Shown piece by piece: positions 12,514 through 37,525 of a DNA stretch of 38,628 nt. A program made the translations under genes and the position numbers. The stretch lies in the IMG/VR virus record IMGVR_UViG_2711768037_000009, positions 1-38,628 of that record, one strand, 5' to 3'. Each line of letters begins with the position of its first letter. Position 1 is the first letter of the stretch. The notes beneath the pieces were generated by a model. It was given only the letters and a program-made list of their open reading frames with translations, had not been told where the DNA came from and searched no databases. The stretch comes from a virus (taxonomy: Duplodnaviria > Heunggongvirae > Uroviricota > Caudoviricetes).

Positions 12514-12527
12514 ATTATAATAAGTAA
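12514..12527. promoter_or_regulatory. TATAAT -10-like element within the ATAATAAGTA motif, in the divergent region between the helicase and ParB-like genes
   Basis: GCTATTATAATAAGTAAGTAACTACTTAG; TATAAT readable on both strands. Confidence 0.4.
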
Positions 12528-12556
12528 GTAACTACTTAGTGGAATGTAGCAATAAA

Positions 12557-13237
12557 ATGGACGTAAAAATCACGATTTTGCAGGTTGATGTTGCCAACCT
12601 TCGCCCGAATACCTGGAACACCAATTCGGTTGGTGCGCAGAATTTCGAAAAACTGAAAGGTTCTATCGAAAAATTGGGCTTTTTTAAGCCAATTTTGGCT
12701 CGTGAGCTTGAAGATGGATTTTTTGAAATCCTCGGCGGCGAACATCGCTGGCGTGCTGCTATTGAGCAAGGAATTTCAACGGTTCCTGTGCTTTCTGTGG
12801 GCAAAATTAGCGATGTCGTGGCAAAACAGATGTCACTGGTGGACAACGAGCGATACGGTGAAGACGACCAAATCGCATTGCAACGCTTCATTGAAGAAAT
12901 TCAGTCAGAACTTGACTATCAACTGTCTGAAATCGCCCCGTATGACGACGAAATCTCGATGGTTTTAGCAAAAGAGGCGGCAATCGACCTTGAAGCACTG
13001 GAGGCGTTGTCTCGTGGTAGTGATGAGCCTGTCGATACCGACAAACGAGAGAAAACCGAACGTGTGGGTGCGGAACATCAGACCATGCGCTTCAAAGTAA
13101 CTTTCGATGCGTCAGATCGTGTTGCAGAAACCATAAAAAACATCATCAAAGAGCAGGCTATTAACACCGGTAATGAAATGGAGAACGCTGGTGAGGCTCT
13201 GGTGTGGCTGGTCGACTACTACAAGGAGCGTATGTAA
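12557..13237 (+). CDS. ParB/Srx-superfamily (ParB-like nuclease domain) protein 1
   Basis: ORF track 12539..13237; ATG at 12557; ParB-box-like GGEHRWRAA. Confidence 0.7.
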   Translation: MDVKITILQVDVANLRPNTWNTNSVGAQNFEKLKGSIEKLGFFKPILARELEDGFFEILGGEHRWRAAIEQGISTVPVLSVGKISDVVAKQMSLVDNERYGEDDQIALQRFIEEIQSELDYQLSEIAPYDDEISMVLAKEAAIDLEALEALSRGSDEPVDTDKREKTERVGAEHQTMRFKVTFDASDRVAETIKNIIKEQAINTGNEMENAGEALVWLVDYYKERM

Positions 13238-13905
13238 TGACCAAAAAGTTTGAAATCGTATATCGCGACCCGGCAGATCTTATTCCCTATGAGATGAATG
13301 CCAAAAAGCATGATGAACAGCAGATCCGAGATCTAGCCGCAGCCATTAAAAAGCGCGGATTTGACCAGCCAATTACGGTCGATAAGAACGACGTAATTAT
13401 TACTGGCCACGGCCGCCGTGAGGCTGCAATTTTTGCTGGACTTGAGCGCGTACCGGTTATTGTTCGCGATGATCTCAGTGATGACGAGGTTCGTGCGAAG
13501 CGCCTTGAAGATAACCGACTTGCCAGCATTGATTACGATGCAATTAAGCTACAGAAAGAGCTTGAGTCGCTTGTTCTGGACGATATCGAGGTTTTCGGCT
13601 TTGAAGAGCGTGAGTTGAATGTTCTCGTTGGCAGCATGACAGAAGAAATGGACACCGACTCGCTAGTTATCGATCTTGGCGAAGAAACTAAACGACAGAA
13701 GGATGAACACACCGAGATCAGTCGCGAAGTTGCAGCGGAAGAAGTACGTGTTGTCGACGTATTGGGCTTTAAAACGCTTCCTGCTGGCTCTGCCATTGTT
13801 GTTGGTGATTTGCTTGCCCACATGGAAGAAATGACGGGAGAAAGCGGGGTAGACGCATTTGTGGCATATGCGGAGAAGATCTCTTCCGGGGAGATGGCTG
13901 CATGA
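13237..13905 (+). CDS. ParB/Srx-superfamily (ParB-like nuclease domain) protein 2
   Basis: ATG overlaps the upstream TAA; AAGGAG at 9-nt spacing; ParB-box-like GHGRREAA. Confidence 0.7.
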   Translation: MTKKFEIVYRDPADLIPYEMNAKKHDEQQIRDLAAAIKKRGFDQPITVDKNDVIITGHGRREAAIFAGLERVPVIVRDDLSDDEVRAKRLEDNRLASIDYDAIKLQKELESLVLDDIEVFGFEERELNVLVGSMTEEMDTDSLVIDLGEETKRQKDEHTEISREVAAEEVRVVDVLGFKTLPAGSAIVVGDLLAHMEEMTGESGVDAFVAYAEKISSGEMAA

Positions 13906-14540
13906 GCAAATACATCATCAACGTATCGTTTCAGACTCGCGTAAATAAAACCACGCGCACGCTGGAAATCGCCGAGTCGTTCGGGCTTGGCTTGGACGAA
14001 AAAGAGTGGACGCTTTACGACAATCTGGAGCTGGAAGTGAAGCAGGGCGATGTGGTGTACATCACCGGCCAATCCGGTTCCGGCAAATCCGTTGTGCTGC
14101 GCGAGTTGCAACGACAGATGAAGGATGAAGGGCTGTCTGTAGCCTCCATCGATGATTTTACCTTCGATAATGAGGTTAACGTCATCGATCAGTTGGGCAA
14201 AACGACCAGTGGTGCGCTTGGGTTGTTATCTATGGCTGGTCTGAACGATGCATATCTGTTTGTTCGCAAGCCTTCTGAAATGTCAGACGGTCAGAAATAT
14301 CGTCTCAAGATTGCCAAACTGATTGAGTCAGGCGCTAAAGTGTGGGCTGCTGACGAGTTCGGGGCTGTTCTAGACCGTGTAACCGCTCAGGTTGTGGCAT
14401 CTAACCTCCAGCGTGCCGCTCGAAAGGTTGGTGCGACGGTAATGGTGGCGACGACTCACGAAGACCTGAAGAACGCGCTGCGCCCGGATATGCAGATCAC
14501 CAAGCACTACAAAGAACGCGTGAAGGTGGAATATGCCTGA
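13902..14540 (+). CDS. Minimal ABC-type ATPase (212 aa)
   Basis: Walker A GQSGSGKS, signature-like SDGQK, Walker B VWAADEF, H-loop TTHE; start overlaps upstream stop. Confidence 0.7.
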   Translation: MSKYIINVSFQTRVNKTTRTLEIAESFGLGLDEKEWTLYDNLELEVKQGDVVYITGQSGSGKSVVLRELQRQMKDEGLSVASIDDFTFDNEVNVIDQLGKTTSGALGLLSMAGLNDAYLFVRKPSEMSDGQKYRLKIAKLIESGAKVWAADEFGAVLDRVTAQVVASNLQRAARKVGATVMVATTHEDLKNALRPDMQITKHYKERVKVEYA

Positions 14541-14787
14541 TTTGAAGATCGTAGAGCTGAAGCCATCGAAAGAGACTGATAACAACAACGTGGAAGTCAT
14601 CCGCCTGCTGGAAGAAGCACTTCAGCACGCCAGAGAAGGAAAAAGCCAGAGCCTAGCGCTGTTGATGATCAACAACGACGGCAGTGTTCTTGATTGCTGG
14701 CATAACGGCGGGCGCCCGTATGTCATGGTAGGGGCGATGGAGTCTCTTCGCCTTGATTTCATCAATGCCAATATCGAGCGCAGGTGA
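14533..14787 (+). CDS. Hypothetical protein (84 aa)
   Basis: ATG overlapping the upstream stop (translational coupling). Confidence 0.55.
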   Translation: MPDLKIVELKPSKETDNNNVEVIRLLEEALQHAREGKSQSLALLMINNDGSVLDCWHNGGRPYVMVGAMESLRLDFINANIERR

Positions 14788-14792
14788 TCGAC

Positions 14793-15683
14793 ATGGCAGA
14801 TATCATCATCAAACGCTACCGCCCTGAAGAGTTTCCGCGTCATCTGGACTTTCTGGAGCGAATGACTGTCACAAAGGGAACTGTAGAGGACTGGCACGCT
14901 CTTAAGTCGCTTCACTACAAAACAGACGGCAAACCTTTCGCGCCAACATACTATCGCTGCGAACTGGATGACCGTCTGGTGGGCGTCGTGGTTATGGCTT
15001 ACCCGAAACTTCTGCTGGCACCTCGCCATCGCATGTTTCCTAAGTTGAAACCAACCACCAATACCACCGTGGCTAACCAGTACTGGGGCCGGTACGTGAA
15101 TAACAACTTTGCGGTGATCAGCCGCTCAGTTGTGGATACTCAGTACCGTGGCGTAGGCGTCTCTTATCGAATGATTAACCTAGTTAGCAGGATGCATGAC
15201 CGGCCAATCATTGAGATCCAGTCCTCGATGAGCAAATACAATCCCTTCGCCATGAAAGCAGGGTTCAAGTTCATCCGCCCTGAGCGACCGAAGAGCTATG
15301 AAAGTGCACTGCGTGTGTTCCAGCGCCATTTCCGTTCCGACCCGGGTGATAACGAGGCGATCGTCAAAGAGTTGTTCGCAATGAGCGAGTCCCGTCGTCG
15401 CCGTGCACTGCGAGATCTGGTGGCGGACTACCACAAGAACAGTTCCCTGGCAAAAGCTGGGAGGAATCGTGGAACGACAATTCAAGACATTGCCGACAGT
15501 CTGGTGGACGAGGCCAGCATTGTGAAGCTGCTCAAGGACATTCACAACCTGAGCTTTACGTCCCCGCTGTATGGTGTGTACCGAAACCCTGACTTTGGTC
15601 GTCGACTGCCTGACACGCTGCCACTGCTGGCATTCGACAAACAACCTTTGGATAAACCGTTAGAAATTGCTTTACCGGCATAA
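14793..15683 (+). CDS. Hypothetical protein (296 aa), possible GNAT-like acetyltransferase fold in the N-terminal half
   Basis: ORF track 14784..15683; ATG at 14793 after AGGTGA; segment RSVVDTQYRGVGVSYRMINLV resembles GNAT motif A (weak). Confidence 0.55.
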   Translation: MADIIIKRYRPEEFPRHLDFLERMTVTKGTVEDWHALKSLHYKTDGKPFAPTYYRCELDDRLVGVVVMAYPKLLLAPRHRMFPKLKPTTNTTVANQYWGRYVNNNFAVISRSVVDTQYRGVGVSYRMINLVSRMHDRPIIEIQSSMSKYNPFAMKAGFKFIRPERPKSYESALRVFQRHFRSDPGDNEAIVKELFAMSESRRRRALRDLVADYHKNSSLAKAGRNRGTTIQDIADSLVDEASIVKLLKDIHNLSFTSPLYGVYRNPDFGRRLPDTLPLLAFDKQPLDKPLEIALPA

Positions 15684-15692
15684 GGATTTGCC

Positions 15693-15959
15693 ATGATGTT
15701 AACCAATAAACAAAAGGACATCATCAAAACGCTCAATCTCGGTTATGAGCGAGGTCATCTACTTGATCTGGACGAATTGCTTGAAGTTTTGCCGTACAAG
15801 ACAACAAAGCAAAGTATCCAGTTCTCAATTCGCGCTCTGATAAAAAAGGGGCTGGTGGAGAAAGGGCATACGCGCCAACGCAGTGACAATCGCTATCACC
15901 GCCGGACTCTTGGGTTAACCACTTTAGGTCGAGCCAAAGCGAAGTTACTGGTGATGTAA
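15693..15959 (+). CDS. Small basic protein (88 aa), likely winged-helix DNA-binding
   Basis: ATG after AAGGA at 6-nt spacing; basic helix-turn-wing-like sequence. Confidence 0.55.
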   Translation: MMLTNKQKDIIKTLNLGYERGHLLDLDELLEVLPYKTTKQSIQFSIRALIKKGLVEKGHTRQRSDNRYHRRTLGLTTLGRAKAKLLVM

Positions 15960-15961
15960 TC

Positions 15962-16060
15962 GGTCTGGGACCTTATTTAAAGACCTGCTTCTGTATATAT
16001 AAATAATAAGTAACTTATTAAATATATACAGAAGCAGGCTTAAAAAGACATGCCCAGACC
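15962..16060. repeat. Large quasi-palindrome (inner arms ~15984-16000 / 16022-16038, outer arms GGTCTGGG / CCCAGACC)
   Basis: 17-bp perfect inverted arms CCTGCTTCTGTATATAT / ATATATACAGAAGCAGG around an AATAATAAGTA core; lies between the wHTH gene and terS. Confidence 0.55.
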
Positions 16061-16077
16061 TAATTAAACACCCCAGA

Positions 16078-16090
16078 AAACAAGTTGGTT
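16078..16090. promoter_or_regulatory. AAACA-AGT-TGGTT motif upstream of terS
   Basis: AAACA-N3-TGTTT family, one mismatch. Confidence 0.3.
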
Positions 16091-16102
16091 AGCAGATGCA
16101 GT

Positions 16103-16115
16103 AAACAAGTTGTTT
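16103..16115. promoter_or_regulatory. AAACA-AGT-TGTTT perfect palindrome, followed by hairpin AGAGCGC-atggac-GCGCTCT just before the terS RBS
   Basis: Seen directly. Confidence 0.4.
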
Positions 16116-16155
16116 TAGAGCGCATGGACGCGCTCTGTGTGTTTTAGAGGGATCT

Positions 16156-16788
16156 ATGACTGTCGAAAAAGACGAGGTAAAAACTCGCCTGACACCAGCG
16201 GAGTGGGCCGAAGCTGAAGCCAAATGGACGTCAGGCGAATATACACTCTCAAAGCTGGAGGAAGAGTACGGCATTCGTCGTGAAACACTCTCCAGACATT
16301 TCAAAAAGCGAGGATTAGAGAAAGGCGCGGACTCTGTTGGGAAGATGGTTCGTGAGTCTCTTAAATCTGACGCAGAGCTTCGCGCTAAAGCCCGTGCGGA
16401 AAAGATAGAAGAACGTCGTACACGTTATGACGGCTGGGCGTATGCGTTGGGGCAGATGGTGATGGTCGAAGTCACTACGGCCAAACGTGAGAGAAAGCCT
16501 TTAGGGGCGATTGAGGATTCTCTCAAGAGCTTACAGAGAGCCAGTAATACCCTTGCAAAATGCTTTGAAGTTTCGTCCAAAGCATTGGGCATGGATCATG
16601 CGGAAAATGACGAGGAAGAAATTCCGAACCTGGTATTTGGTGAGCTTACGCCTTCCCAGGTGGCGAAATTACGTCAGGAAGACGACGAGCCTGAAATCAT
16701 CGATGACGAATTGCTTGAGACGTTGGAAGAAGAAGCTCTAAGCGAATTTGATGCGACAGATGATGGAAGTGAAGGGGAGGACGAATAA
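16156..16788 (+). CDS. Terminase small subunit (210 aa)
   Basis: N-terminal HTH-like segment, acidic C-terminal tail, immediately upstream of and overlapping the large terminase; AGAGGG SD. Confidence 0.65.
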   Translation: MTVEKDEVKTRLTPAEWAEAEAKWTSGEYTLSKLEEEYGIRRETLSRHFKKRGLEKGADSVGKMVRESLKSDAELRAKARAEKIEERRTRYDGWAYALGQMVMVEVTTAKRERKPLGAIEDSLKSLQRASNTLAKCFEVSSKALGMDHAENDEEEIPNLVFGELTPSQVAKLRQEDDEPEIIDDELLETLEEEALSEFDATDDGSEGEDE

Positions 16789-18044
16789 TGGCAATCCCGT
16801 CCTCGCTCAGTCTTGTGCAACTGCATTCTGGACAGATGAAAGTCTTCCAGTCTCCGCATCGATTTAAAGTTGTTTGTGCTGGTCGACGCTGGGGAAAATC
16901 CCGGTTGTCGATCTCCACTATTATTCGTGCGGCGGCAAAGGAAAAAAAGCAAAGGGTCTGGTATGTCGCTCCTACTTACCAGATGGCTCGCCAGATTTTG
17001 TGGGACGACCTACAGGAAGTTCTGCCTCGTAAGTGGGTTAGGAAAAAGAACGACACCACGATGACAATCGTGTTGAAGAACGGTTCGGAGATCGCCCTCA
17101 AAGGTGCTGATAAGCCTGACACGCTGCGCGGCGTAGCGTTGCATTTTGTAGTGCTTGATGAATTTCAGGATATGAAGGCTGACACCTGGTACAAGGTGTT
17201 ACGACCTACTCTTTCATCGACACGCGGCGGCGCACTGATCATTGGTACGCCAAAAGGCTTCTCGGAATTTCACAAACTGTGGACTATAGGCCAGAACGTA
17301 GAGCTGCAAAGAAAGGGACAGTGGAAGAGCTGGCAGTTTGTAACTGCCGATTCTCCGTTTGTACCTACGGCGGAAATTGAAGCTGCTAAGAACGATATGG
17401 ACCCCAAATCGTTCGCTCAGGAGTACCTAGCCAGCTTTGAGAACATGTCCGGGCGCGTTTACTACCCGTTCGATCGTAACGTGCATGTAAAACCGCTTCA
17501 GTTCAACCCTCGGTTGCCTATATGGGTAGGGCAGGACTTCAACATTGACCCGATGTCTTCCGTAATTTTGCAACCTCAGCCAAACGGTGAGCTATGGGCA
17601 ATTGATGAATTGGTGCTCTTTTCCTCTAACACGGCAGAAGTGTGTGATGAGCTGGAGAGACGTTTCTGGCGATGGAAATCACAGATAACGGTATTTCCTG
17701 ATCCGGCTGGTGCTTATCGTCAACATGCTCGCGGTGAGTCTGACGTCGACATATTCAAAGAGAAGGGATTCTTGCGTGTCGATTATTCAAAAAAACACCC
17801 GCCAATTGCGGATCGTGTTAATGCAGTTAACCGAATGCTGATGACCGCATCTGGGGATATCAGGCTGTATATCGATCCGAAATGCAAGCATTTGATTGAT
17901 TCGCTGGAAAAGGTCATCTACAAGCCTGGAACACGAGATATGGATAAGACAGGTGGCATTGAGCATAGTGCAGACGCATTGGGCTATCCAGTACATCGTA
18001 GGTATCCAGTAAAAAACCGTGTTATTCTTGGTGGTTCAAGATAG
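16788..18044 (+). CDS. Terminase large subunit (418 aa)
   Basis: Walker A KVVCAGRRWGKS near N-terminus; ATG overlaps terS stop; followed by portal. Confidence 0.85.
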   Translation: MAIPSSLSLVQLHSGQMKVFQSPHRFKVVCAGRRWGKSRLSISTIIRAAAKEKKQRVWYVAPTYQMARQILWDDLQEVLPRKWVRKKNDTTMTIVLKNGSEIALKGADKPDTLRGVALHFVVLDEFQDMKADTWYKVLRPTLSSTRGGALIIGTPKGFSEFHKLWTIGQNVELQRKGQWKSWQFVTADSPFVPTAEIEAAKNDMDPKSFAQEYLASFENMSGRVYYPFDRNVHVKPLQFNPRLPIWVGQDFNIDPMSSVILQPQPNGELWAIDELVLFSSNTAEVCDELERRFWRWKSQITVFPDPAGAYRQHARGESDVDIFKEKGFLRVDYSKKHPPIADRVNAVNRMLMTASGDIRLYIDPKCKHLIDSLEKVIYKPGTRDMDKTGGIEHSADALGYPVHRRYPVKNRVILGGSR

Positions 18045-18070
18045 GTGTGTGGTTATTTAAGGGTATTCAA

Positions 18071-19603
18071 ATGGAATTGAACGACAAACAAATTAAGGAT
18101 CTGGTGGCGCGACGCCACCCGGAATACGAAAAGAAAAAAGAACATTGGGACTTTCTCGCTAGCACCTATGCTGGCGGGCGTGGTTGGTTTAGCGAAAATA
18201 TATTTAGGTACTTTAAAGAGGGCGACCAGGAATTTAAGGAGCGAGTTGAGCGTGCTTATCGATTCAACCACACCCGTGAAGTGGTAAATCTCATTAACAA
18301 GTATCTTTTTAAAGAAGATATTCATCGAAATATTGAAGAATCGCCAGAGCAGATCCGCAATTTCTGGAAACGAGCGACTCGCCAGAATGCCTCTATTGAT
18401 TCATTTATGGCCGCGATTGATTTGCAATCGTCTATATACGGTCGTATCTGGGTTGTTGTCGATAGCACGATGAGTGGTGATGTTGAATCAGTCGCTGACG
18501 AGAAAAAGAAAGATGCTCGTGCCTACGCCTACTGGATTTCACCGCAGCAAATGCTGGATGTGGCATGGGACGACGACGGGAATATGTTATGGGCGTTAAT
18601 TGTGGAAGTCGCTCGTGATGACGCAGATCCTTTTACTTCTACAGGTCAGGAATACCAACGTTATCGTCTTTGGACACAAAACGAGTGGTATTTGTTCCGT
18701 GAGGAAGTGAAGAAGGGCGCTAGTGGAGCAGCTCGTCGTCAGGCAAAAGTTATTTTAGAGGATAGCGACGAGCATAATCTGGGCGTAGTTCCTGTGTTTC
18801 CTGTTGATTGTATTGGAGAAAGTGAATCACCGTATTTCAGCCCATCGTTGATCGATGATATCGCTTATCTTGATCGTGCGGTTGCAAACTATCTGTCAAA
18901 CCTTGATGCCATTATTCAGGATCAGACATTTAGCCAGTTGGCCATACCGGTGCAGTCACTTTTACCTGGTGATGATAATCACACTAAAGTTCTTGAAATG
19001 GGGACAAAACGTGTCTTTACCTACGATTCTGAAGGTGGAAACCAGCCGTTTTATTTATCACCAGACCCTAAACAAGCTCAGATGATCATCACTACGATTA
19101 AGACGGTGATTAACGAAATCTACCATTCAGTTGGTGTAGCTGGCGAGCGAACGAAGCAGGACAACGCACAGGGAATAGATAATTCATCTGGTGCTGCAAA
19201 AATGTATGACTTCCAGCGTGTAAATAGCTTGCTTGTCACAAAAGCAGATCGTCTTGAAAGGGCTGAACGCCAAATCATGCAACTGGTTGCTAAATGGATG
19301 GGGGTAGATCTGGACGAAGATCACTCTCTAATAGCATATCCAGAAAGTTTTGATATTCGCGGGCTTACTGATGAATTTTCTGTTGCGGAGAAACTATCGT
19401 TACTTCAGGCACCGGACTCTGTACGTCGTCAGCAGATGGAAATGCTGATTGAGAAGATTTTCCCTAATATCACTGAAGCGATGAAAAAGGAATTTGATAA
19501 AGATCTCTTGAAATTTCCGCCAAAAAATGATCTTAATGCTCTTGAAAATAAGTCTGTACTTACCTATGATCGCAGTGCTGTCCAAGAAAGCGGACAAAAT
19601 TAA
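18071..19603 (+). CDS. Portal protein (~510 aa)
   Basis: ORF track 18047..19603 (GTG); first ATG at 18071 after AAGGG; size and position between terminase and scaffold. Confidence 0.75.
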   Translation: MELNDKQIKDLVARRHPEYEKKKEHWDFLASTYAGGRGWFSENIFRYFKEGDQEFKERVERAYRFNHTREVVNLINKYLFKEDIHRNIEESPEQIRNFWKRATRQNASIDSFMAAIDLQSSIYGRIWVVVDSTMSGDVESVADEKKKDARAYAYWISPQQMLDVAWDDDGNMLWALIVEVARDDADPFTSTGQEYQRYRLWTQNEWYLFREEVKKGASGAARRQAKVILEDSDEHNLGVVPVFPVDCIGESESPYFSPSLIDDIAYLDRAVANYLSNLDAIIQDQTFSQLAIPVQSLLPGDDNHTKVLEMGTKRVFTYDSEGGNQPFYLSPDPKQAQMIITTIKTVINEIYHSVGVAGERTKQDNAQGIDNSSGAAKMYDFQRVNSLLVTKADRLERAERQIMQLVAKWMGVDLDEDHSLIAYPESFDIRGLTDEFSVAEKLSLLQAPDSVRRQQMEMLIEKIFPNITEAMKKEFDKDLLKFPPKNDLNALENKSVLTYDRSAVQESGQN

Positions 19604-19666
19604 CCCCGAGGGAATGGGGACTCATCTACTCAAGAGAACGAGTGATAAGTAATAAAGGGAACTTTT

Positions 19667-20554: not shown

Positions 20555-20579
20555 CATCTAAATCAAAGGGAATTGATAG

Positions 20580-21500: not shown

Positions 21501-21533
21501 CTAAAATAATAGGTATGTAATTACCTATGCTTA

Positions 21534-21562
21534 AGGGTGGGCTATACGCCCACCCTTTTTGT
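21534..21562 (+). terminator. Strong intrinsic terminator after the major capsid gene
   Basis: AAGGGTGGGC-tatac-GCCCACCCTT followed by TTTTT. Confidence 0.8.
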
Positions 21563-21597
21563 AGGTTTTAAATATGCCTGTATAGCGAGAAAGCGTA

Positions 21598-22865: not shown

Positions 22866-22936
22866 TGTCTTTCTCATTATTTGGTTTTGGAAGCAATAGT
22901 TTTGGCTGGCAATGAGATCGACAACAGGGAGAGAGC

Positions 22937-23745: not shown

Positions 23746-23746
23746 T

Positions 23747-24130
23747 GTGTTTATTGAAGCATTTGCAAATTTGATGCAGAAGGCAAAAATTGGCACGGTA
23801 GGGACAGACATTTTCTGTCATTACTTACCTGCCAATGTCAAATCCGGTGTCCTGCTTATTAACCCAAATACCGGTATCAGAATCGATCATGAGTTACAAG
23901 GCTTTTATCATGAGTCGTTCACAATCATTGTGCGTGGCTCGTCAATTACAACGACTATTGAGAAAGCGCGTAAGATCATTGATATGTTTCCCGTAGAGGA
24001 AACGGAATCTGGCGGGGTCTATTTTCGACTTGTACGGCCTATGGCTATGCCGGTCGTTTATCCGAACGATGATGGATCGTTAATAGAAGCCGGTATTCCA
24101 GTTGAATTTGCTGGCTATTTATTGAATTAA
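23747..24130 (+). CDS. Putative tail terminator / tail completion protein (127 aa)
   Basis: ORF track 23642..24130; GTG at 23747 after GAGAGG, 2 nt past the upstream stop. Confidence 0.5.
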   Translation: MFIEAFANLMQKAKIGTVGTDIFCHYLPANVKSGVLLINPNTGIRIDHELQGFYHESFTIIVRGSSITTTIEKARKIIDMFPVEETESGGVYFRLVRPMAMPVVYPNDDGSLIEAGIPVEFAGYLLN

Positions 24131-24203
24131 ATAAATAGGTGAGTATATACTTAAATATAGCGCAATGAATGCGTGAAATTAACGGAAAAAGGAGTTTCCA
24201 TCA

Positions 24204-24944
24204 ATGTCTAATACCCATGTAAAAAACATCAAGCTTGGTGCCTGCAAGGTATCATTTGGTGGTGTGGATCTGGGTTACACCAAAGGTGGTGTTCAGGTTG
24301 AAGTAGCCACTGAAACGCTTAAAGTTACAGTCGATCAACAAGGTCAGACTGTAATCTCTGAATTGGTTCAGGGGCGTAACATTACCATTACCGCACCTCT
24401 GGCCGAGTCTGTGCTCAAAAATATGGTCGATCTTATGCCTGGTTCTACTTTGAGCGAAGATGACAACTCCGTCACCATCACATCTGCACAGGGCGTAAAT
24501 CTGATCAACGTGGCGAAGGAACTCGTACTGACACCGCAGGACACCACCGACTATGTGTTGACGCTCCCGAAAGCGGCAACCGCTGGCAACTTCACTATGT
24601 CCTACCAGTCTGATGATGTTCGTGTGTTCTCTGTTCAGTTCAACGCGTACCCTGATGATGAGGGAGTTCTTGGCAAAATGAGTGGCCCAAAACCGGTGAA
24701 AAACGTGACGATTACACCTGAATCTCCGACTGTTAAGGTCGGTTCGACAGTTCAACTGACTGCTAATTTCACCCCAGATGATGCCGGTGATAAAACTGGT
24801 GTATGGGCGTCAGAGGATGATAAAAAAGCCACTGTTGATCAGACTGGTCTTGTGCGTGGTGTGGCACAAGGTTCTGCAAACATATCATTCACCAGCAATA
24901 GCGGTAGCAAGAAAGTAACCAAATCAGTGACGGTTAATCAATAA
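24204..24944 (+). CDS. Major tail protein with C-terminal Ig-like (Big_2-type) domain
   Basis: AAAAAGGAG SD; C-terminal ~80 aa (VTITPESPTVKVGSTVQLTANFTP...) looks like a Big_2 Ig fold, as in lambda gpV. Confidence 0.8.
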   Translation: MSNTHVKNIKLGACKVSFGGVDLGYTKGGVQVEVATETLKVTVDQQGQTVISELVQGRNITITAPLAESVLKNMVDLMPGSTLSEDDNSVTITSAQGVNLINVAKELVLTPQDTTDYVLTLPKAATAGNFTMSYQSDDVRVFSVQFNAYPDDEGVLGKMSGPKPVKNVTITPESPTVKVGSTVQLTANFTPDDAGDKTGVWASEDDKKATVDQTGLVRGVAQGSANISFTSNSGSKKVTKSVTVNQ

Positions 24945-24970
24945 TCAAGCAACTTATTAATCTATAAATT

Positions 24971-24996
24971 GAGGCTCATGATGGGCCTCTCTTTTA
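24971..24996 (+). terminator. Intrinsic terminator after the major tail gene
   Basis: GAGGCTCAT-g-ATGGGCCTC hairpin followed by TCTTTT. Confidence 0.6.
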
Positions 24997-30258: not shown

Positions 30259-30299
30259 CTATAGACGGCCCCAACGGGGCAGTCTCACAAGGATGTGAG

Positions 30300-30635
30300 A
30301 TGGAAAGACTGACTTTTAATTGGTATCCAGATTACGAATCTGAAAAAAGCGTAAAACCGAATGTAACGGTACTTAATTTTGGTGATGACTACGAGCAGCG
30401 ACAGGCTCAAGGTCTTAATCGCATTAAGGAAGAGTGGTCGTTAACTTTTAGCAGACAATACAACGAAATTAATGCCATTGATGATTTTTTGACTGATCGA
30501 GCTGGTGTTGAGTCATTCTATTGGGTAAACCCACGAGGTAAACGGATAGTGGTTGTGTGTGACAGCCATATGGTCAAACGCTATCAAGGTTACTGCGTGT
30601 TAACTGCTACATTCAGACAAGTGTTTGAGGTTTAA
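30300..30635 (+). CDS. Minor tail protein, lambda gpM-like (111 aa)
   Basis: Shares remembered gpM landmarks (FGDDY..Q...GLN, FYW, VVC, F.QV) at similar size. Confidence 0.8.
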   Translation: MERLTFNWYPDYESEKSVKPNVTVLNFGDDYEQRQAQGLNRIKEEWSLTFSRQYNEINAIDDFLTDRAGVESFYWVNPRGKRIVVVCDSHMVKRYQGYCVLTATFRQVFEV

Positions 30636-30669
30636 GTGTCTGGATAAGTAAATGCTAATTTACTATCAT

Positions 30670-30705
30670 GATGGTGATGGTGATGGTGATGGTGATGGTG
30701 ATGGT
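30670..30705. repeat. Hexanucleotide microsatellite (GATGGT)x6 in the M-L intergenic region
   Basis: Six perfect tandem units ~35 nt upstream of the L-like ATG. Confidence 0.8.
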
Positions 30706-30740
30706 GTCCTGCCAGCACCACTTATTTCAAGGATGAAACA

Positions 30741-31439: not shown

Positions 31440-32229
31440 TAAAGCAATCCCTGAGCTTGGCTCTGACGTTATGCAGCAAATCTATCTCTGCGCCATAAAT
31501 CGCTACCCTAATGAAGCGTGTGGCTTTCTGGTTAGAACTAATGGCGACAAATATCGCTTTATGGAAGCGCGGAATGTTTCGGAGAACCCGCAGAACACTT
31601 TTGTAATGCACGTTGACGACATTATGGCGGCAGAGGATGCGGGTGATGTTATCGCAATCTGGCATTCACATACAGATGAATCAGCAGAAGCATCTGATGC
31701 CGATCGTGCAGGCTGCGAAGCGACGGAAGTTCCGTGGATGATTCTGGCTATTCGCAAGAATGTTGAGGGAGATGCCCCTTTCCATTTTAGCGAGATGAAT
31801 GTGATCACACCTGATGGTTTCGAAATGCCATACCTGGGTAGACCGTATGTATTTGGCGTATTCGATTGCTGGATGTTGTGTCGGGACTATTTGAAGCGTG
31901 AGTTTAACGTCGAGCTTAACCCGAACGCACACCTGCATATTCCATCGTGGTACACCGGCGATAACGACATTCTCGACCAGAACTACCGAAACGAAGGATT
32001 GGTACGGCTTGCGCCTGGAACAGAGCCTCAACGTGGGGACGTCTTCTTTATTCAATACGGGAAAATGCCAGATCACTGCGCGGTTTATATCGGCGATGGA
32101 ATGATTCTTCATCACCAGATCGACCGTCTTAGTTGTCGTGCTTATTACGGCGGAATGTATCAGAAACATACGACGCATCACTTGCGTCACAGAGACTTGC
32201 TCAAGGGAGATGAGACGTGTCTGAGTTAG
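31432..32229 (+). CDS. Tail assembly protein, lambda gpK-like (MPN/JAMM + NlpC/P60 domains)
   Basis: ORF track 31405..32229; ATG at 31432 overlaps the L stop; JAMM motif HSHTDESAEASDAD; Cys/His NlpC/P60-like C-terminal half. Confidence 0.8.
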   Translation: MGNKAIPELGSDVMQQIYLCAINRYPNEACGFLVRTNGDKYRFMEARNVSENPQNTFVMHVDDIMAAEDAGDVIAIWHSHTDESAEASDADRAGCEATEVPWMILAIRKNVEGDAPFHFSEMNVITPDGFEMPYLGRPYVFGVFDCWMLCRDYLKREFNVELNPNAHLHIPSWYTGDNDILDQNYRNEGLVRLAPGTEPQRGDVFFIQYGKMPDHCAVYIGDGMILHHQIDRLSCRAYYGGMYQKHTTHHLRHRDLLKGDETCLS

Positions 32230-32807
32230 TTCATGTGCAGCTTGGCGGACCTATGGCCAAACATTTTGGCCGCCACTGGCATCTAAAGGTGCGCAATACA
32301 AAACAGGCTCTGGATTTAATTGAGGCCAACAAGCCTGGTTTTAAAGCATGGATGAAGCGCAATATCAAAACCTATGACAGATACCACATCCAGATCACCA
32401 ATAAACAGGGCCACAAGTGGTCTGTGGACGAGAGTGAATATCAGATGATGGGGCAGTCTGACAACATTGCCAAAATCCGCATTACACCTGTTCCGCGAGG
32501 AAGCGGTGGATCTGCTTTTGGGTGGTTTCAGACGGTTGTTGGAGCAGTATTAATGGTTGCCTCGATATGGGTGCCCGCTCTTGCGCCTCTCGGTTTGTCA
32601 CTGATGATGGGCGGTATAGCGCAAATCATATCTCCACAAGCCACTAACGAAAGTGTGAGACAGGCTGATAATTCGAACTCTTTTTACTTTGATGGGCCTC
32701 AAAATACAACAAACCAGGGCAACCCTGTACAGCTTATCTATGGCGAGGAAATTTTAGTTGGCTCGCAAGTTGTAAGTTCTTCTATCACCATCGATCAGCT
32801 TATGTAA
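32217..32807 (+). CDS. Tail assembly protein, lambda gpI-like (196 aa)
   Basis: GTG start after AGGGAG; hydrophobic Gly-rich central segment and C-terminal YGEEILVGSQVVS resemble gpI. Confidence 0.7.
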   Translation: MSELVHVQLGGPMAKHFGRHWHLKVRNTKQALDLIEANKPGFKAWMKRNIKTYDRYHIQITNKQGHKWSVDESEYQMMGQSDNIAKIRITPVPRGSGGSAFGWFQTVVGAVLMVASIWVPALAPLGLSLMMGGIAQIISPQATNESVRQADNSNSFYFDGPQNTTNQGNPVQLIYGEEILVGSQVVSSSITIDQLM

Positions 32808-32823
32808 TCAAGGATTTTTGGAC

Positions 32824-35800
32824 ATGGAACAGTTCAAGAAGAAAAAGTTACCTCTATTAATTGCAGGTTCAGGTGGCAAAAAAAGTAGCAAAAGCTCTAG
32901 TCGCACACCAGTTGAAGCAGACGATACCGTAAATTCTCGTGCTATGGCCTCTATTCTCGATCTTCTTGGTGAAGGCGTAATTGGCGGCCTGGTAAATGGC
33001 GCAAGATCTATTTTTGTCGACGATTTGCCCATAGTAAATGAAGACGGCTCTTCAAACTTTAGCGGAATTTCATGGGATTTTCGAGACGGCTCACAAGACC
33101 AGACACCAATGTCTGGCTTTGATTTCGTCGAAACACCTAAATCGATCAATATCCAACTAAAGAAATCTCATTATGTGACGGTTTCAATAGATAACGATGA
33201 GGCCGATCGCGTTCGAGTCATCATGAAGTTCCCTTCTCTGCGAAGAATAGACCAAAAAACGGGTGATACGAACGGCACTACCGTTGAGTATAAGTTCCAG
33301 ATCTCAAATGGAGATTCGACATTTGTAGATGTGGTTGCAGAAGGTGAAAAAAACGTTGGTATTAAGTTAACAGCGAAGAAAACAGGTGTTTATTATCGTA
33401 GTTATGAGCTGAAGTTACCCAAGCCAGGTCGGGCATACAGTATTCGAGTAGTTCGTATTACTGATGATAACAACGGTCAGTATCTTTATAACGATACATG
33501 GGTGGACTCAATTGGTGAGATCGTTGATACACCGATGAACTACCCAAACTCTGCGTTGGTGGGACTGAAGGTTAATTCTGAGCAGTTTGGCGGCTCTATG
33601 CCTTCTCGTTCCTATCTGGTGCGGGGATTAAAAATTCGCGTACCATCAAACTACAACGAGGCTAGCAACACTTATGATGGCGTATGGGATGGCTCTTTTA
33701 AGCCGTTGTCTTCTTCAAACCCTGCGTGGATTCTCTTCGACTTGCTTACCAATTCTCGATATGGGCTTGGTCAGTATGTGTCGGAATCTATGATTGATCT
33801 CGGCCAACTGTACCAGATCGGTCGATATTGTGACGAAGAGGTTGATGATGGCTTTGGTGGTAAAGAGAAACGCTTTGCAATCAATACGCAGATCACCAGT
33901 CGACAAGACGCATACCGATTAATTCAGGATATTGCCGGTGCATTCCGCGGCATGGTGTTTTGGGCTGGTGGCATGGTTAATATCATGCAGGATAGCCCGT
34001 CAGATCCGGTAATGATGTTTACTAACTCCAACGTCAAAGATGGATTGTTTACATATAAGGGGTCTGCGCGTAAAGATCGCCCATCCGTTGCGCTCGTAAC
34101 CTACAACAACAAGGAGGACGGTTATAAGCAAAACATCGAGTATGTTGAAGATCAGGACGCAATGCGCCGTTATGGTGAGCGTAAAACAGAAGTCGTAGCA
34201 TTTGGATGTACGAGCCGAGGCCAGGCTCACCGAGTTGGTTTGTGGCTGTTGTATACCGCCAGAATGGAGTCGGATGTAATTACATTTACTGCTGGCTTAG
34301 ACGCGTCATTTCTGATGCCTGGTGAAACCGTTCTGATTCAGAACAAATATCGTGCAGGCAAACGTAACTCCGGTCGAATTGTGGAGTTTACCAAAAATAG
34401 CATCACTCTCGATGCGCCTGTGTCGTTAGCTAAAAGCGGCAGCTTTATTCGGATATTGAATCAGAAAGGCAAAATCGTTGAACGCGATGTTCTTGAAACT
34501 GGCGAAAACATAACAAAGGTTACGTTTTCAAAAGCCCTGTCGTCGGCGGAAACGCCAGTTTTGAACGGTGTCTGGACAATTACAGAACCAGATCTCGAAC
34601 CTATGCGCGTTCGCATCGTTAACATCGCGCAGGGGGAAACGCCGGGTAGCTTTGACATCACCGCTGTTGAGAACAATCCGTCTAAATATGAGGCGATCGA
34701 CAATGGTGCAACGCTTATCCCGCAAAATACGACGGTATTGGACCCGACTTACTCCAAGCCGTCTAATTTGCAAATCACCGAAGGGACTTATCTCTCAAGC
34801 CCTGGCAATCTGTCAGTAAAACTGACTGCAACATGGGAAGGGAAATCTCCAGTGTATTGGATCAGTTGGCGACGTTCTGATGAAAACAATGTATCGAACT
34901 GGCAATCGGCGCGTGTAACCGAAGAGCAATACGAAATCGTTAATGTTGCAGAGAATGGACGTTACGACTTCCAGTTGTATGCGGTTTCATTCAACGGTAA
35001 AAAAACAGAGATTATCAGTACCGTTTATCAGGTGCTGGGTACAATGACGCCGCCTGATGCGCCCATGTCATTAACGGCAGTTGGGGACTATCGTAATGTG
35101 ATACTGAATTGGGTCAATCCAGATTCGGTAGACCTTGATCACATTAATGTTTACGCATCCCAGACCAACAATCTGGATACAGCGAAACTGATCGCAGAGT
35201 CAGCGAGTACAACCTTTACACATGCTGGTCTTGGTGATAACGAAACTTGGTATTACTGGGTTAGATCAGCAAATAAGCGTGGCATGTTGAGTCGTCCAAA
35301 CTCAAATCTTGGTACAGAGGCCACAACGCGAGATGTTCTTTCATTTTTAGCCAATAAAATTACCTCGTCAGAACTTGGCCAGGCTTTAAATGAGGAAATT
35401 GACAGTAAGGCTTCTCAACAAGCTGTTGATGAAATCAATAATCATATCGTTCAGAGCGTTGAATCTCTGGAAGGTGAAATTTCCGCATTAAATAAGGAGC
35501 TAATGAGTAGTATCGATGAGTTTAAAACATCGTTTACTGAACGCAGCGATACACTGGAGAATGCGCAAAGCGAGCTTAGGACGGAAGTTTCTAGCACTCG
35601 GGAAAAAGTAGATGATGCATTACAACAGGTTGAAAATTCAAATGCAGCACTTATTGAACTACGCAATACAGTATCAGAACAAGGTGATTCTGTTGCAGGT
35701 GTCGTAGAAGCAGCAAATGCGGCACTTGAAAATGCATCATCTTTAATTGCCGAAGAGCGTGAAGCTCGTGCACAAGCAGAACTGGCGAATGCTAAAAAGA

Positions 35801-37431
35801 TAGAAACGATAAAATCATCGGTTGATGAAAGTGTTGCGGCTGTAGAAGAAATGCAGAGAACAGTTGCTGAGGTAGGAAGAGTAAGTTCAGAAATCACAAC
35901 TAATCTTGAAGCAATTTCTAAGACAAATATCGATCTTGCGTTGCGGCAGGACGAAGATCAGCACAGACAGCTGGTAAATAACGCGAAAATTGCAACGACT
36001 CAAAAGATTCTTGTCGATGATGTGTCCGCAATGGCATCTAAGGTTGAAGAGATACGAGCCGAGATTGGTGACAACATTCGAGCATCTATTCTCGAAGAAA
36101 CGACAGCAAGAACCGACGCTGACAATGCGTTAGCCAGTAGCATGACACAATTACAGAGTAAATTTGAAAATGATATTAGTGCTGCTATAAGGTCAGAACA
36201 ATCCACTAGGGCATCAGCGAATGAAGCGCTTTCAACTCAAATTACTCAACTGGAATCTAAAGTCAATACAGATCTTTCCACTGCAATTAGAGAAGAGCGA
36301 CAAACAAGAGTCACTCAAAATGAAGCGTTATCAAGACAAATCAATCAATTGCAGGTAAAAATGGATGATGACATATCCGCTGCTATTAATGAGGAAAGAG
36401 AAGCCAGAGCATCAGGCGATAGTGCGCTATCAAGAGAAGTTAGTAGTTTAAAAACAAAAACAGGTAAAGACATTGCAGCGGCAGTAGCAGTTGAAACCAA
36501 AGCAAGAATTGACGCTAATGATGCATTATCCAGACAAATATCCTCGCTTACTACAAGGGCCAATGAGCTTGAGTCCTCGATAGAGCGAGAATCGACATCT
36601 CGTACAAGTCAGGATTCTGCCATTGCAAAAGACTTGACGAGTTTTAAAACAAAAACTGCTAAGGATATAAGTGCAGCTGTTGCGGTAGAAACCCAGGCAA
36701 GAACTGACGCTGATACCGCATTGACGTCGCAGATTAACTCACTAAAGACGCAAACTGGTAAAGATATAAAGGCTGCTGTGGCAGAAGAGACAAAAGCAAG
36801 AACTGATGCTGATGCGGCGCTTGCGACAAGAGTAACTAATCTCCAGTCGCAAACAACAAATGATATCAATGCAGCGATTACGTCAGAGTCAAAGGCCAGA
36901 ACAAGTGCAGACAACGCTCTAGGAAAACGAATTGATACACTGAAAGCGTCTGTAGATGGAAATGTTGCCGTTATTCAACAGCAGGCTTCTGCTATAGCTG
37001 ACGCAAATAGAAAAGTATCCACCTCGTACACATTGAAGATGGAAACTTCAACGAGTGGAGGGCAGAAGTATGTAGCGGGCATTGCGCTTGGTATTGATAC
37101 AGCGGGGCTTTCTCAGTTTTTGGTGCGGGCAGATCGATTTGGTTTGGTCAACAATGTTAATGGGAAGATCACAACGCCATTTGTTATCGAAAACAGCATT
37201 GCATATATGAACGGTGCTTATATCAAAGATGGCACTATCACAAACGCAAAGGTAGGTGACTTGCAATCAACAAACTTCGTAAGCGGACGAGCCGGATGGA
37301 GATTTGGCAAAAACGGAACGCTTGAGATTAACGGTAACAGTGGCGGAAATGGGAGATTAGTTATCAATGGGCAGAGGATCGACGTTTACGATGACAATAA
37401 TGTACTCCGGGTAAGAATTGGTCGGCTTTGA
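32824..37431 (+). CDS. Tail tip / host-specificity protein, lambda gpJ-like (~1535 aa) with C-terminal tandem-repeat coiled-coil region
   Basis: ORF track 32818..37431; ATG at 32824 after AAGGA; N-terminal half shares gpJ landmarks (RGLKIRVPSNY...WDGSFKP...PAWILFDLLTNSRYGLG...YCDE). Confidence 0.85.
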   Translation: MEQFKKKKLPLLIAGSGGKKSSKSSSRTPVEADDTVNSRAMASILDLLGEGVIGGLVNGARSIFVDDLPIVNEDGSSNFSGISWDFRDGSQDQTPMSGFDFVETPKSINIQLKKSHYVTVSIDNDEADRVRVIMKFPSLRRIDQKTGDTNGTTVEYKFQISNGDSTFVDVVAEGEKNVGIKLTAKKTGVYYRSYELKLPKPGRAYSIRVVRITDDNNGQYLYNDTWVDSIGEIVDTPMNYPNSALVGLKVNSEQFGGSMPSRSYLVRGLKIRVPSNYNEASNTYDGVWDGSFKPLSSSNPAWILFDLLTNSRYGLGQYVSESMIDLGQLYQIGRYCDEEVDDGFGGKEKRFAINTQITSRQDAYRLIQDIAGAFRGMVFWAGGMVNIMQDSPSDPVMMFTNSNVKDGLFTYKGSARKDRPSVALVTYNNKEDGYKQNIEYVEDQDAMRRYGERKTEVVAFGCTSRGQAHRVGLWLLYTARMESDVITFTAGLDASFLMPGETVLIQNKYRAGKRNSGRIVEFTKNSITLDAPVSLAKSGSFIRILNQKGKIVERDVLETGENITKVTFSKALSSAETPVLNGVWTITEPDLEPMRVRIVNIAQGETPGSFDITAVENNPSKYEAIDNGATLIPQNTTVLDPTYSKPSNLQITEGTYLSSPGNLSVKLTATWEGKSPVYWISWRRSDENNVSNWQSARVTEEQYEIVNVAENGRYDFQLYAVSFNGKKTEIISTVYQVLGTMTPPDAPMSLTAVGDYRNVILNWVNPDSVDLDHINVYASQTNNLDTAKLIAESASTTFTHAGLGDNETWYYWVRSANKRGMLSRPNSNLGTEATTRDVLSFLANKITSSELGQALNEEIDSKASQQAVDEINNHIVQSVESLEGEISALNKELMSSIDEFKTSFTERSDTLENAQSELRTEVSSTREKVDDALQQVENSNAALIELRNTVSEQGDSVAGVVEAANAALENASSLIAEEREARAQAELANAKKIETIKSSVDESVAAVEEMQRTVAEVGRVSSEITTNLEAISKTNIDLALRQDEDQHRQLVNNAKIATTQKILVDDVSAMASKVEEIRAEIGDNIRASILEETTARTDADNALASSMTQLQSKFENDISAAIRSEQSTRASANEALSTQITQLESKVNTDLSTAIREERQTRVTQNEALSRQINQLQVKMDDDISAAINEEREARASGDSALSREVSSLKTKTGKDIAAAVAVETKARIDANDALSRQISSLTTRANELESSIERESTSRTSQDSAIAKDLTSFKTKTAKDISAAVAVETQARTDADTALTSQINSLKTQTGKDIKAAVAEETKARTDADAALATRVTNLQSQTTNDINAAITSESKARTSADNALGKRIDTLKASVDGNVAVIQQQASAIADANRKVSTSYTLKMETSTSGGQKYVAGIALGIDTAGLSQFLVRADRFGLVNNVNGKITTPFVIENSIAYMNGAYIKDGTITNAKVGDLQSTNFVSGRAGWRFGKNGTLEINGNSGGNGRLVINGQRIDVYDDNNVLRVRIGRL
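36050..36960 (+). repeat. Tandem ~99-bp coding repeats (33-residue units, ~8-9 copies) inside the J-like gene
   Basis: Units such as DISAAIRSEQSTRASANEALSTQITQLESKVNT and DISAAVAVETQARTDADTALTSQINSLKTQTGK; coordinates approximate. Confidence 0.7.
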
Positions 37432-37525
37432 TTATGGAAAAAAATATTTTCATCGATAATAATAAGTAGCTACATACTTAACTGTGGGCGAGGATAGCCC
37501 ACCTTATTAAAGGAGCAGATTCAAC

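Follow-up and report, generated by a model that had tools for sequence, protein, structure and literature searches.

Dispersed 18-bp palindromes of an SSU5-type phage-plasmid as candidate repressor operators

Introduction

What does a short palindrome do that recurs in the few intergenic gaps between the structural genes of a tailed phage? The question is raised by the IMG/VR record IMGVR_UViG_2711768037_000009, analysed here over its 38,628 nucleotides (nt) and referred to throughout as the window. A preliminary description of the window had listed six related sites, near positions 12514, 16001, 21506, 24131, 24941 and 37458, as one palindromic family of the late region, distinct from an 'early' AAACA-N3-TGTTT motif, and read them as late-promoter elements or activator-binding sites, possibly served by the winged-helix protein encoded at 15693-15959. 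It proposed to judge the motif by its enrichment, and held that a similar density inside coding regions would speak against it. We have re-examined these sites in the window and in complete relatives, and ask what kind of element they are and which protein might bind them.

Over 20 kb, the window shares 97% identity with PhiR41_1 (a circular 108-kb Escherichia phage). Identity to Cyrano, a phage of E. coli LF82, is 93%, and to Salmonella phage SSU5 and several Klebsiella phage-plasmids it is ~79-80%. With such values, the 38.6-kb window can be taken as part of the genome of an SSU5/pHCM2-type phage-plasmid. The genes from 12.5 kb on are, in order, a pair of ParB-like genes, two for ATPases and one for a small winged-helix protein, followed by terS, terL, portal, capsid and tail genes, with the start of a tail-fibre gene at the window end. 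Upstream of 12.5 kb the minus strand encodes a UvsW-like helicase, small genes without known function and a FljA-like protein. Clinical E. coli, Klebsiella and Salmonella, Typhi included, commonly harbour phage-plasmids of this type, which may have resistance genes as cargo and whose control of lysis and lysogeny is essentially undescribed. In the literature on the palindrome sequence and on SSU5 promoters and operators we found no description of the motif.

A conserved family of 18-bp palindromes

The family consensus, derived from PhiR41_1, SSU5 and Klebsiella phage pJN2-26, is a perfect 18-bp palindrome whose halves are TA(A/G)GTAAGT and ACTTAC(C/T)TA (TAGGTAAGTACTTACCTA, with the variant tcGGTAAGCACTTACCag), set in AT-rich flanks that are themselves symmetric (aaaaWRA ... 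TYWtttt). With at most one mismatch, the pattern TARGTA-N6-TACYTA matches the window five times against 0.13 expected, a count reached in none of 100 shuffles; the enrichment that the preliminary description proposed to measure is thus strong. Three matches are exact (12521-12538, 21510-21527 and 37463-37480) and two have one mismatch (24136-24153 and 19549-19566). The AATAATARGTA form in which the motif was originally written is more weakly enriched when one mismatch is allowed, with four matches against 1.13 expected and 4 of 100 shuffles reaching four.

For a more sensitive scan we used a position-weight matrix built from 46 intergenic sites of the three complete genomes, with a cut-off of 10 bits. 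It returned eight matches in the window against 0.45 in shuffles. Six of the eight are intergenic although non-coding DNA makes up only ~12.6% of the window (binomial p = 9e-5), so the motif does not occur in coding DNA at the density seen in the gaps. The family sites in the window are:

12521-12538: TAAGTAAGTAACTACTTA, exact match, 21.9 bits; in the 82-bp gap between the divergent uvsW-like operon (minus strand) and ParB-like operon (plus strand)
18042-18059: TAGGTGTGTGGTTATTTA, decayed copy, 12.3 bits; overlaps the terL stop codon, just 5' of the portal start
19549-19566: TAAGTCTGTACTTACCTA, 22.8 bits; within the 3' end of the portal gene, kept in all relatives aligned
21510-21527: TAGGTATGTAATTACCTA, exact match, 27.9 bits, the top-scoring member in the window; 9 nt past the major-capsid stop codon, conserved
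24136-24153: TAGGTGAGTATATACTTA, one mismatch, 19.2 bits; 5' of the major tail gene
30645-30662: TAAGTAAATGCTAATTTA, 17.4 bits; between the gpM-like and gpL-like genes, with orthologues at SSU5 15590 and PhiR41 60232
37463-37480: TAAGTAGCTACATACTTA, exact match, 21.0 bits; 5' of the tail-fibre gene and followed by a GC-rich hairpin (~37485-37505)

In alignments, the position of the decayed 18042 copy holds a perfect consensus in relatives (TAAGTAAGTACTTACCTA), and the 12521 site keeps its left half in the Salmonella and Klebsiella relatives while its right half is degenerate. Pattern and matrix scans together retain four of the six sites first listed as members of one family (12521, 21510, 24136 and 37463) and exclude those at 16001 and 24941, which are described with the neighbouring elements below. 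The original list was also incomplete, as it lacks 19549, 30645 and the decayed 18042.

The same scan of the complete genomes gave, at 10 bits or more, 28 matches against 0.85 in shuffles for PhiR41_1, 33 against 0.35 for SSU5 and 34 against 0.35 for pJN2-26, with ~18-20 strong sites per complete genome. Approximately 86% of the genome matches fall in the ~11% of DNA that is non-coding (binomial p = 4e-19), and this bias persists (p = 1e-10) after allowing for the stop codons that the motif carries in two of three frames. The gaps that hold sites are orthologous among E. coli, Salmonella and Klebsiella relatives that are only ~79% identical, and the adjacent bases there diverge; the same palindrome is also kept in a distant relative whose proteins are 30-55% identical. 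The family is therefore real, strongly non-random and positionally conserved.

A restriction to late or structural genes, as first proposed, does not hold in the complete relatives. There the palindrome precedes genes for ribonucleotide reductase, thymidylate synthase, a DNA methylase, a helicase-operon protein, a gp32-like single-stranded DNA-binding protein and an SbcD-like nuclease, as well as several small genes, in addition to capsid-scaffold, tail, tail-fibre and holin genes. No family sites were found in the accessory and maintenance regions of the complete relatives.

Among the matches listed by exact-consensus scans, multi-copy occurrence is confined to SSU5-like elements. The bacterial matches listed are scattered singletons in unrelated phyla and are not informative on host chromosomes. 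Viral matches outside the SSU5 group are all to TAAGTAAGTACTTACTTA, often within (TAAG)n or (CTTA)n runs, and stand singly in marine or environmental phage contigs (five such contigs and others), with further single copies of TAAGTAAGTACTTACTTA in scattered bacterial genomes; we judged these TAAGTAAGTACTTACTTA matches to be unrelated low-complexity or multi-frame-stop palindromes and did not count them as family members.

This distribution bears on the idea that a host, enterobacterial transcription factor binds the sites. The motif is identical in Escherichia, Salmonella and Klebsiella elements, as such a factor would predict, and its half-site GTAAG may resemble those of NarL/FixJ-type regulators such as UvrY/GacA. 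Multiple copies occur only in SSU5-like elements among the matches listed, however, the bacterial matches being scattered singletons, and a host factor would not be expected to be tied to the element's own repressor promoter, as the palindrome is (see below). We regard a host factor as very improbable.

Duplex DNA rather than an RNA hairpin

A self-complementary sequence may act either as double-stranded DNA or as a folded single strand, and the variation among the 46 sites bears on this choice. Mirror positions 3 and 16, the only variable position of the arms, combine as GC in 11 sites, AT in 11, AC in 10 and GT in 11, which amounts to full independence; base-pairing between them is therefore not under selection. 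Predicted RNA hairpins at six window sites have energies between -1 and -7.7 kcal/mol, and for three of these sites shuffled sequences fold at least as well. The palindromic centre (GTAC) would not be needed in a hairpin loop, and Rfam holds no family matching the palindrome. Absence of mirror covariation together with weak folds indicates that the element works as duplex DNA, presumably read by a symmetric dimer. An intrinsic terminator or structured RNA hairpin was ruled out as the identity of the palindrome, given the lack of covariation, the weak stems and the lack of an Rfam match.

The broader possibility that the palindromes act as RNA or single strand, whether in transcript termination, processing or stabilisation or as the target of an RNA-binding protein, can be given hardly any weight. 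It has in its favour, beyond the self-complementarity, that sites lie 0-30 nt past stop codons with a second hairpin following several of them, and that the element encodes a relative of FljA, an RNA-binding repressor. In addition to the weak, AU-rich stems, however, 10 of 46 sites would have an A/C mismatch in mid-stem and a U-tract is not consistently present 3' of the sites. The FljA-like protein is better suited to a separate motif, AAAACAAnTTGTTT, which adjoins ribosome-binding sites.

Position relative to predicted promoters

All promoters given here are predictions from approximate matrices. Approximately half of the sites overlap a predicted sigma-70-like promoter in the direction of the gene, and the register of palindrome and promoter is kept within each orthologous group in the three genomes. 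The arrangements are as follows, with palindrome positions relative to the predicted start site:

19542-19570, plus strand: predicted promoter TTGAAA-17-TATGAT, 10 of 12 consensus matches; the palindrome fills the spacer (-28..-11), likewise at the gp32 and CYRAN_56 sites
Ribonucleotide reductase gene: predicted promoter TTGATA-17-TAACAT; palindrome at -31..-14
30641-30669: predicted promoter TGGATA-17-TATCAT; palindrome at -31..-14
24122-24151, plus strand: predicted promoter TTGAAT-18-TATACT, with its -10 inside the palindrome at -22..-5; same register in SSU5 and pJN2-26
Methylase and tail-fibre genes: predicted promoters; palindrome at -7..+10
ParB-like operon: predicted promoter; palindrome at about -4..+13
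CYRAN_60 group: predicted promoter; palindrome at -17..0
12513-12521: overlapping -10-like hexamers, TATTAT (12513-12518) and TATAAT (12516-12521) on the plus strand and TATAAT (12519 to 12514) on the minus strand

The perfect TATAAT noted earlier at the first site is thus present, at 12516-12521 on the plus strand. Relative to the predicted minus-strand uvsW promoter, the 12521 palindrome occupies -31..-14. The remaining sites have no convincing promoter; they lie 0-30 nt past a stop codon and just 5' of a terminator or conserved hairpin, as do 21510 (terminator at 21535-21561) and 37463 (hairpin).

No asymmetric element was found at a fixed distance from the palindrome, whose flanks are equally strong upstream and downstream. 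The distance from palindrome to promoter elements varies from -45 to +24 among gene classes that are mixed. A strict extended -10 (TGnTAnnnT) at a fixed offset past the motif was not found either, and the looser TGTAnnAAT or TGnCATAAT, 6-9 nt 3' of the palindrome, is limited to three or four orthologous groups. The symmetry of site and flanks and the lack of any element at fixed distance argue that the palindrome is not itself a promoter element.

These data allow us to weigh the proposal that a lytic-cycle activator, perhaps the winged-helix protein, binds the palindrome to serve middle or late promoters that lack a good -35. Some promoters do have a good -10 without a -35 (TATAAT at 12516-12521 on the plus strand and 12519 to 12514 on the minus strand), and at the three or four groups with TGTAnnAAT or TGnCATAAT the palindrome would be placed at about -30. 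On the other hand, no distance to any -10 is fixed, and many sites cover the spacer, -10 or +1 of promoters that are close to consensus and have the optimal 17 bp between their hexamers, where an activator would be both unworkable and unneeded. Other sites abut start codons or precede terminators, sites are not limited to late genes, and the symmetric flanks show no bias toward the direction of the gene. If the promoters are real, a protein over the spacer, -10 or +1 of a near-consensus promoter with a 17-bp spacer would be a repressor and not an activator, and it is these positions that give the arrangement its repressor geometry.

Expression in Cyrano lysogens

Transcript levels are available for Cyrano in LF82, a 93% identical relative of the window, as population averages from RNA sequencing (Table S1 of PMC9928086). 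After overnight growth of lysogens in LB medium, genes directly 3' of sites are at or near the floor (2.3-4.3 log2), including CYRAN_4, 56 and 60, which have near-consensus predicted promoters (PMC9928086). At 6 h in macrophages, the Cro-like transcript has increased ~90-fold (PMC9928086), and the largest upward steps along the genome fall at the site-linked units CYRAN_4/5, 12/13, 56/57 and 60-62. CYRAN_4/5 are the genes downstream of the predicted 19542-19570 promoter, and the step at CYRAN_12/13 falls at the predicted 24122-24151 promoter.

Expression drops at sites with terminators, namely after the capsid gene (~3 log2), after gpM and before ribonucleotide reductase, and also at the junctions between operons expressed in lysogens and silent lytic genes (CYRAN_30 to 31 and 64 to 65). 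The sites thus mark boundaries of regulated units and are not plain 'on' switches. The data fit strong promoters held silent in the lysogen, though the sign of regulation is not proven thereby.

An activator is also compatible with part of this pattern, as the units rising most on partial induction start at sites (CYRAN_4/5, 12/13, 56/57 and 60-62) and the winged-helix transcript is then at its highest. As the activator, however, the winged-helix protein is disfavoured by its background expression in lysogens and by a level that does not track the targets. Together with the variable -10 spacing, the mixed gene classes, the overlap with core promoters and a core copy in a repressive position over +1 of the repressor promoter (below), this leads us away from the late-promoter or activator interpretation first offered, which we consider improbable. 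The more general part of that proposal, that the motif is a specific, promoter-associated element for a protein, is supported, with binding itself predicted from the sites.

A CI-like repressor as candidate binder

Outside the window, but within the complete relatives, lies a candidate for the protein:

PhiR41_1 87738-88124: CI-like XRE-type helix-turn-helix repressor, 128 aa (CYRAN_45; XSB42545 family), adjoining the integrase gene

Lysogens of Cyrano express CYRAN_45. The sequence tcRGTAAGnnCTTACCag stands ~31 nt 5' of the repressor start codon in Cyrano, PhiR41_1 and pJN2-26, right after a conserved predicted TTTACA-16-TAATAT promoter; it represents the family's 14-bp core, changed at the outer bases and placed over the predicted start site. 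The arrangement is the same in 79 of the 79 IMG/VR loci listed that encode a 56-100% identical relative. A putative recognition block, GYKNxNNLSLIKSGKIPLP, is almost invariant among these proteins while the rest of the CI-like protein diverges. A weaker operator over the start site of a repressor's own promoter is a classic layout for negative autoregulation. The core copy over its own start site leads us to take the CI-like repressor as the most likely binder of the predicted operators. No CI-like repressor from the distant relative IMGVR_UViG_2713896750_000003 was found among the 80 loci listed.

Cyrano (39.4-43.1 kb), PhiR41_1 and pJN2-26 have a block of integrase, CI-like repressor and Cro-like genes between the tRNA genes and a CobT-like gene, and this block is missing from SSU5. 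Its absence would account for SSU5 behaving as a lytic phage.

Candidate binders encoded in the window

Two kinds of protein encoded in the operon that starts at the 12521 site offer a different answer:

15693-15959, plus strand: winged-helix protein, 88 aa; AlphaFold2 model with a mean predicted local distance difference test score of 84.6; Foldseek matches MepR, MarR, FabT and PadR at template-modelling scores of 0.7-0.77
12557-13237, plus strand: ParB-like protein 1; Pfam ParB_N, E = 3e-13; aligns to Spo0J residues 23-171

The earlier assignment of the first as a winged helix is borne out by the model and its Foldseek matches, which indicate a MarR/PadR-like fold. ParB-like protein 1, compared at the sequence level with solved structures, comprises the ParB N-terminal domain and part of the ParB DNA-binding region. 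The ParB-like genes span 12557-13905 in the operon that begins at the 12521 site. A Pfam search of 20 further small PhiR41_1 proteins, made to find other DNA-binding candidates, gave almost no matches.

Either protein could in principle bind the operators, the operon then regulating itself through the 12521 site that overlaps its start, in the manner of the korA/korB central control operon of RK2. MarR-family dimers, the best matches of the winged-helix protein, repress palindromic operators that overlap -35 or -10. The geometry of the sites fits such operators and a MarR-like fold is present, though the gene for this protein stands 3.1 kb further down the operon and shows background expression in lysogens. 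Its gene is found in every relative, SSU5 and the distant contig included, and that contig keeps both the recognition helix TKxxIQFxxR and the palindrome. ParB-like protein 1, for its part, reaches into the ParB DNA-binding region, and ParB, KorB and Noc bind palindromes of 13-16 bp.

Expression and the repressor-promoter site argue the other way. Transcripts of the winged-helix gene and of the two ParB-like genes do not rise above background in Cyrano lysogens (2.3-3.5 log2), levels too low for ~20 sites on ~5 plasmid copies, and the winged-helix level (B6 above MB1) does not parallel the expression of the targets. A window-encoded binder would also leave unexplained the core over the CI-like repressor start site at all 79 loci listed, unless the protein shuts the repressor gene off. 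We consider such a binder unlikely, though less so than an activator.

As a separate observation, the winged-helix gene (CYRAN_123) rises by up to ~13-fold between conditions, and no such change is seen in the pair of ATPase genes directly before it. The winged-helix gene probably has a promoter of its own inside the preceding gene.

A model of dispersed repression and points against it

Taken as a whole, the sites are probably repressor operators of some phage-encoded dimer; that the dimer is the CI-like immunity repressor in particular, and the sites its dispersed operators, we put at about an even chance. We postulate that a CI-like repressor dimer would bind the ~18-20 strong copies in the short gaps between lytic genes and silence these genes in the plasmid state. 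At approximately half of the sites, bound repressor would exclude RNA polymerase from a sigma-70-type promoter, and at the others, past a stop codon and before a terminator or hairpin, the bound protein would act as a roadblock or insulator. The weaker core copy over the repressor's own start site would give negative autoregulation. On loss of repressor, the scattered DNA-metabolism, structural and lysis promoters would fire together.

Several observations weigh against this model. First, it leans on promoters that are themselves deduced from approximate matrices. Promoter scores exceed the 95th percentile of random windows on the plus strand at 8-9 of 15-17 sites per genome, compared with 1-4 on the minus strand, but the strands differ modestly (Wilcoxon p = 0.13, 0.017 and 0.004 in three genomes that are not independent) and the AT-rich palindrome itself mimics -35 and -10 hexamers. 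With the palindrome contributing hexamer-like sequence and the strand difference modest, we treat the promoters as predicted throughout.

Second, expression is not uniformly low next to the sites in lysogens. The site-linked CYRAN_34 is expressed there, as is the uvsW-like operon despite the 12521 site at -31..-14 of its only clear -10; the latter could reflect weak occupancy, the right half-site being degenerate in relatives, or a switch between the overlapping divergent -10s at 12513-12521. Nor is there a net upward expression step over all sites (Mann-Whitney p = 0.6), because steps rise at some sites and fall at others.

Lastly, the link to the CI-like repressor has gaps. The site at the repressor promoter lacks the outer TA...TA, which in the dispersed sites are the best-conserved positions, and no palindrome lies over the promoter of the adjacent Cro-like gene. 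SSU5 has no detectable homologue of the CI-like repressor, yet 19 intact sites; under the dispersed-operator model it would have to be a recent, lytic derivative with an immunity deletion.

A more far-reaching version of the model, which we offer as speculation and think unlikely to hold in full, is that a single symmetric operator family gives the CI-like repressor control of the genome in three ways (occlusion, roadblock and divergent switch), with joint release of early, late and lysis genes and no cascade. Some ten scattered sigma-70 promoters would be occluded. Ahead of terminators in the structural operon, the palindrome would form an orientation-independent roadblock, in effect a palindromic 'stoperator' system within a Gram-negative element. 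At 12513-12538, the repressor would choose between divergent -10s, shutting the ParB-like and terminase genes and leaving the uvsW-to-FljA-like operon on.

Comparison with known systems

P1 carries more than 14 C1 operators scattered over its genome. The present elements resemble P1 in being ~100-kb plasmid prophages with one repressor sequence at the promoters of unlinked lytic operons and, by prediction, a repressor gene controlled likewise. As expected of dispersed operators, the sites recur at unlinked loci far above chance with conserved positions, and a repressor expressed in lysogens has a copy at its own promoter, albeit without the outer TA..TA. The P1 operators, however, are asymmetric 17-mers bound by a monomer, and C1 has an unrelated fold, whereas here the site is a symmetric 18-mer. 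In addition, the late genes of P1 are separately under Lpa, while here one 18-mer precedes DNA-metabolism, structural and lysis genes.

The stoperators of the cluster A mycobacteriophages L5 and Bxb1 are asymmetric 13-mers that work in one orientation. Like these stoperators (~20-30 copies), the palindromes lie in short gaps of both early and late operons, many of them off promoters (here 21510 and 37463). The L5-type asymmetry is absent, as our sites are symmetric; approximately half of them overlap predicted core promoters, and the elongation block is putative here.

RK2/IncP offers a third parallel, since KorA and KorB also act at dispersed palindromes in varied promoter positions, and a control operon with ParB-family and small helix-turn-helix genes starts with an operator. 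The operators have no sequence similarity, though, KorB acts with CTP and at a distance with KorA, and in lysogens the corresponding genes here, ParB-like and winged-helix, are silent. A subset of our sites, with the centre at about -30 and TGTAnnAAT following, resembles a -35-replacing element such as the P1 Lpa repeat or the T4 MotA box. Those elements keep a fixed -10 distance and serve one temporal class, as a late-promoter or activator site should; here the distance ranges from -45 to +24 and the classes are mixed. The dispersed-operator design is thus known, and it is the sequence, the symmetry and the joint cover of DNA-metabolism and structural genes that differ from P1, L5/Bxb1 and RK2.

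If the dispersed-operator model is true, it provides a defined operator, a candidate repressor and a map of ~20 controlled promoters for a phage-plasmid. Immunity groups, induction and curing strategies, and the lytic behaviour of SSU5 would become directly testable. It would also add a third, independently evolved case of 'one repressor, many dispersed sites' beside P1 and the L5-like mycobacteriophages.

Look-alikes and neighbouring elements

The two sites removed from the original list, and the sequences around several family sites, involve elements of other kinds:

15950-16072: large imperfect palindrome, not a family member; arms 15950-16000 and 16022-16072, 51 nt each and 73% complementary, in the gap between the winged-helix gene and terS
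21535-21561, plus strand: intrinsic terminator GGGTGGGC-TATAC-GCCCACCC-TTTTT, directly 3' of the 21510 palindrome

The former site at 16001-16022 is the centre of the first of these, a separate imperfect palindrome of ~123 bp, with an offset symmetry centre and a matrix score of only 12 bits. Copies of the large palindrome occur in complete genomes at PhiR41 45596, PhiR41_1 75131 and SSU5 33474, with a partial copy at PhiR41_1 13445; the core copies at PhiR41_1 75131 and SSU5 33474 lie 5' of the helicase-operon gene. A copy in Cyrano, past the parA operon, coincides with an expression drop of 6 log2. The large palindrome may terminate or insulate transcription in both directions, or it may serve packaging or replication. 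The former site at 24941-24960 gives no matrix match and stands just 5' of an ordinary terminator (24971-24989).

After the major-tail site, a hairpin at 24161-24175 shows compensatory stem changes in three lineages (GCGCA..TGCGT, GCACC..GGTGC and GTGTC..GACAC). It would lie at the extreme 5' end of the transcript from the predicted promoter and may be an mRNA stabiliser. Between the 30645 site and the hairpin preceding the gpL-like gene, a perfect tandem repeat (TGATGG, 6.3 copies) occupies 30669-30706; it is absent from the same position in PhiR41_1.

At the divergent 12521 gap, the minus-strand uvsW/CYRAN_117 operon is on in Cyrano lysogens and the plus-strand ParB-like operon is silent. 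CYRAN_117 itself (window 10634-10912, minus strand; 92 aa, phrog_1466) reaches 12 times background in lysogens, above the upstream uvsW gene.

The 'early' AAACA-N3-TGTTT motif corresponds to AAAACAAnTTGTTT, found in the window at 343-355, 2957-2969 and 16103-16115 and in 11 copies in PhiR41_1, and it is, as first proposed, a motif separate from the palindrome family. It stands 8-30 nt 5' of start codons, directly upstream of the Shine-Dalgarno sequence, and resembles an mRNA leader hairpin. The FljA-like protein is encoded at window 8232-8756 on the minus strand (Pfam Flag1_repress, E = 6e-81). The FljA of Salmonella binds RNA and represses translation of fliC, and the FljA-like protein may act on the AAAACAAnTTGTTT hairpins.

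Outside the window, PhiR41_1 13830-14400 (the CYRAN_81 region) is GC-rich and apparently non-coding, and lies between a gene for a 76-aa protein and the RNase H gene. The region has an annotated open reading frame of 44 aa and no Rfam match; it is highly expressed in lysogens, and its transcript may be a non-coding RNA.

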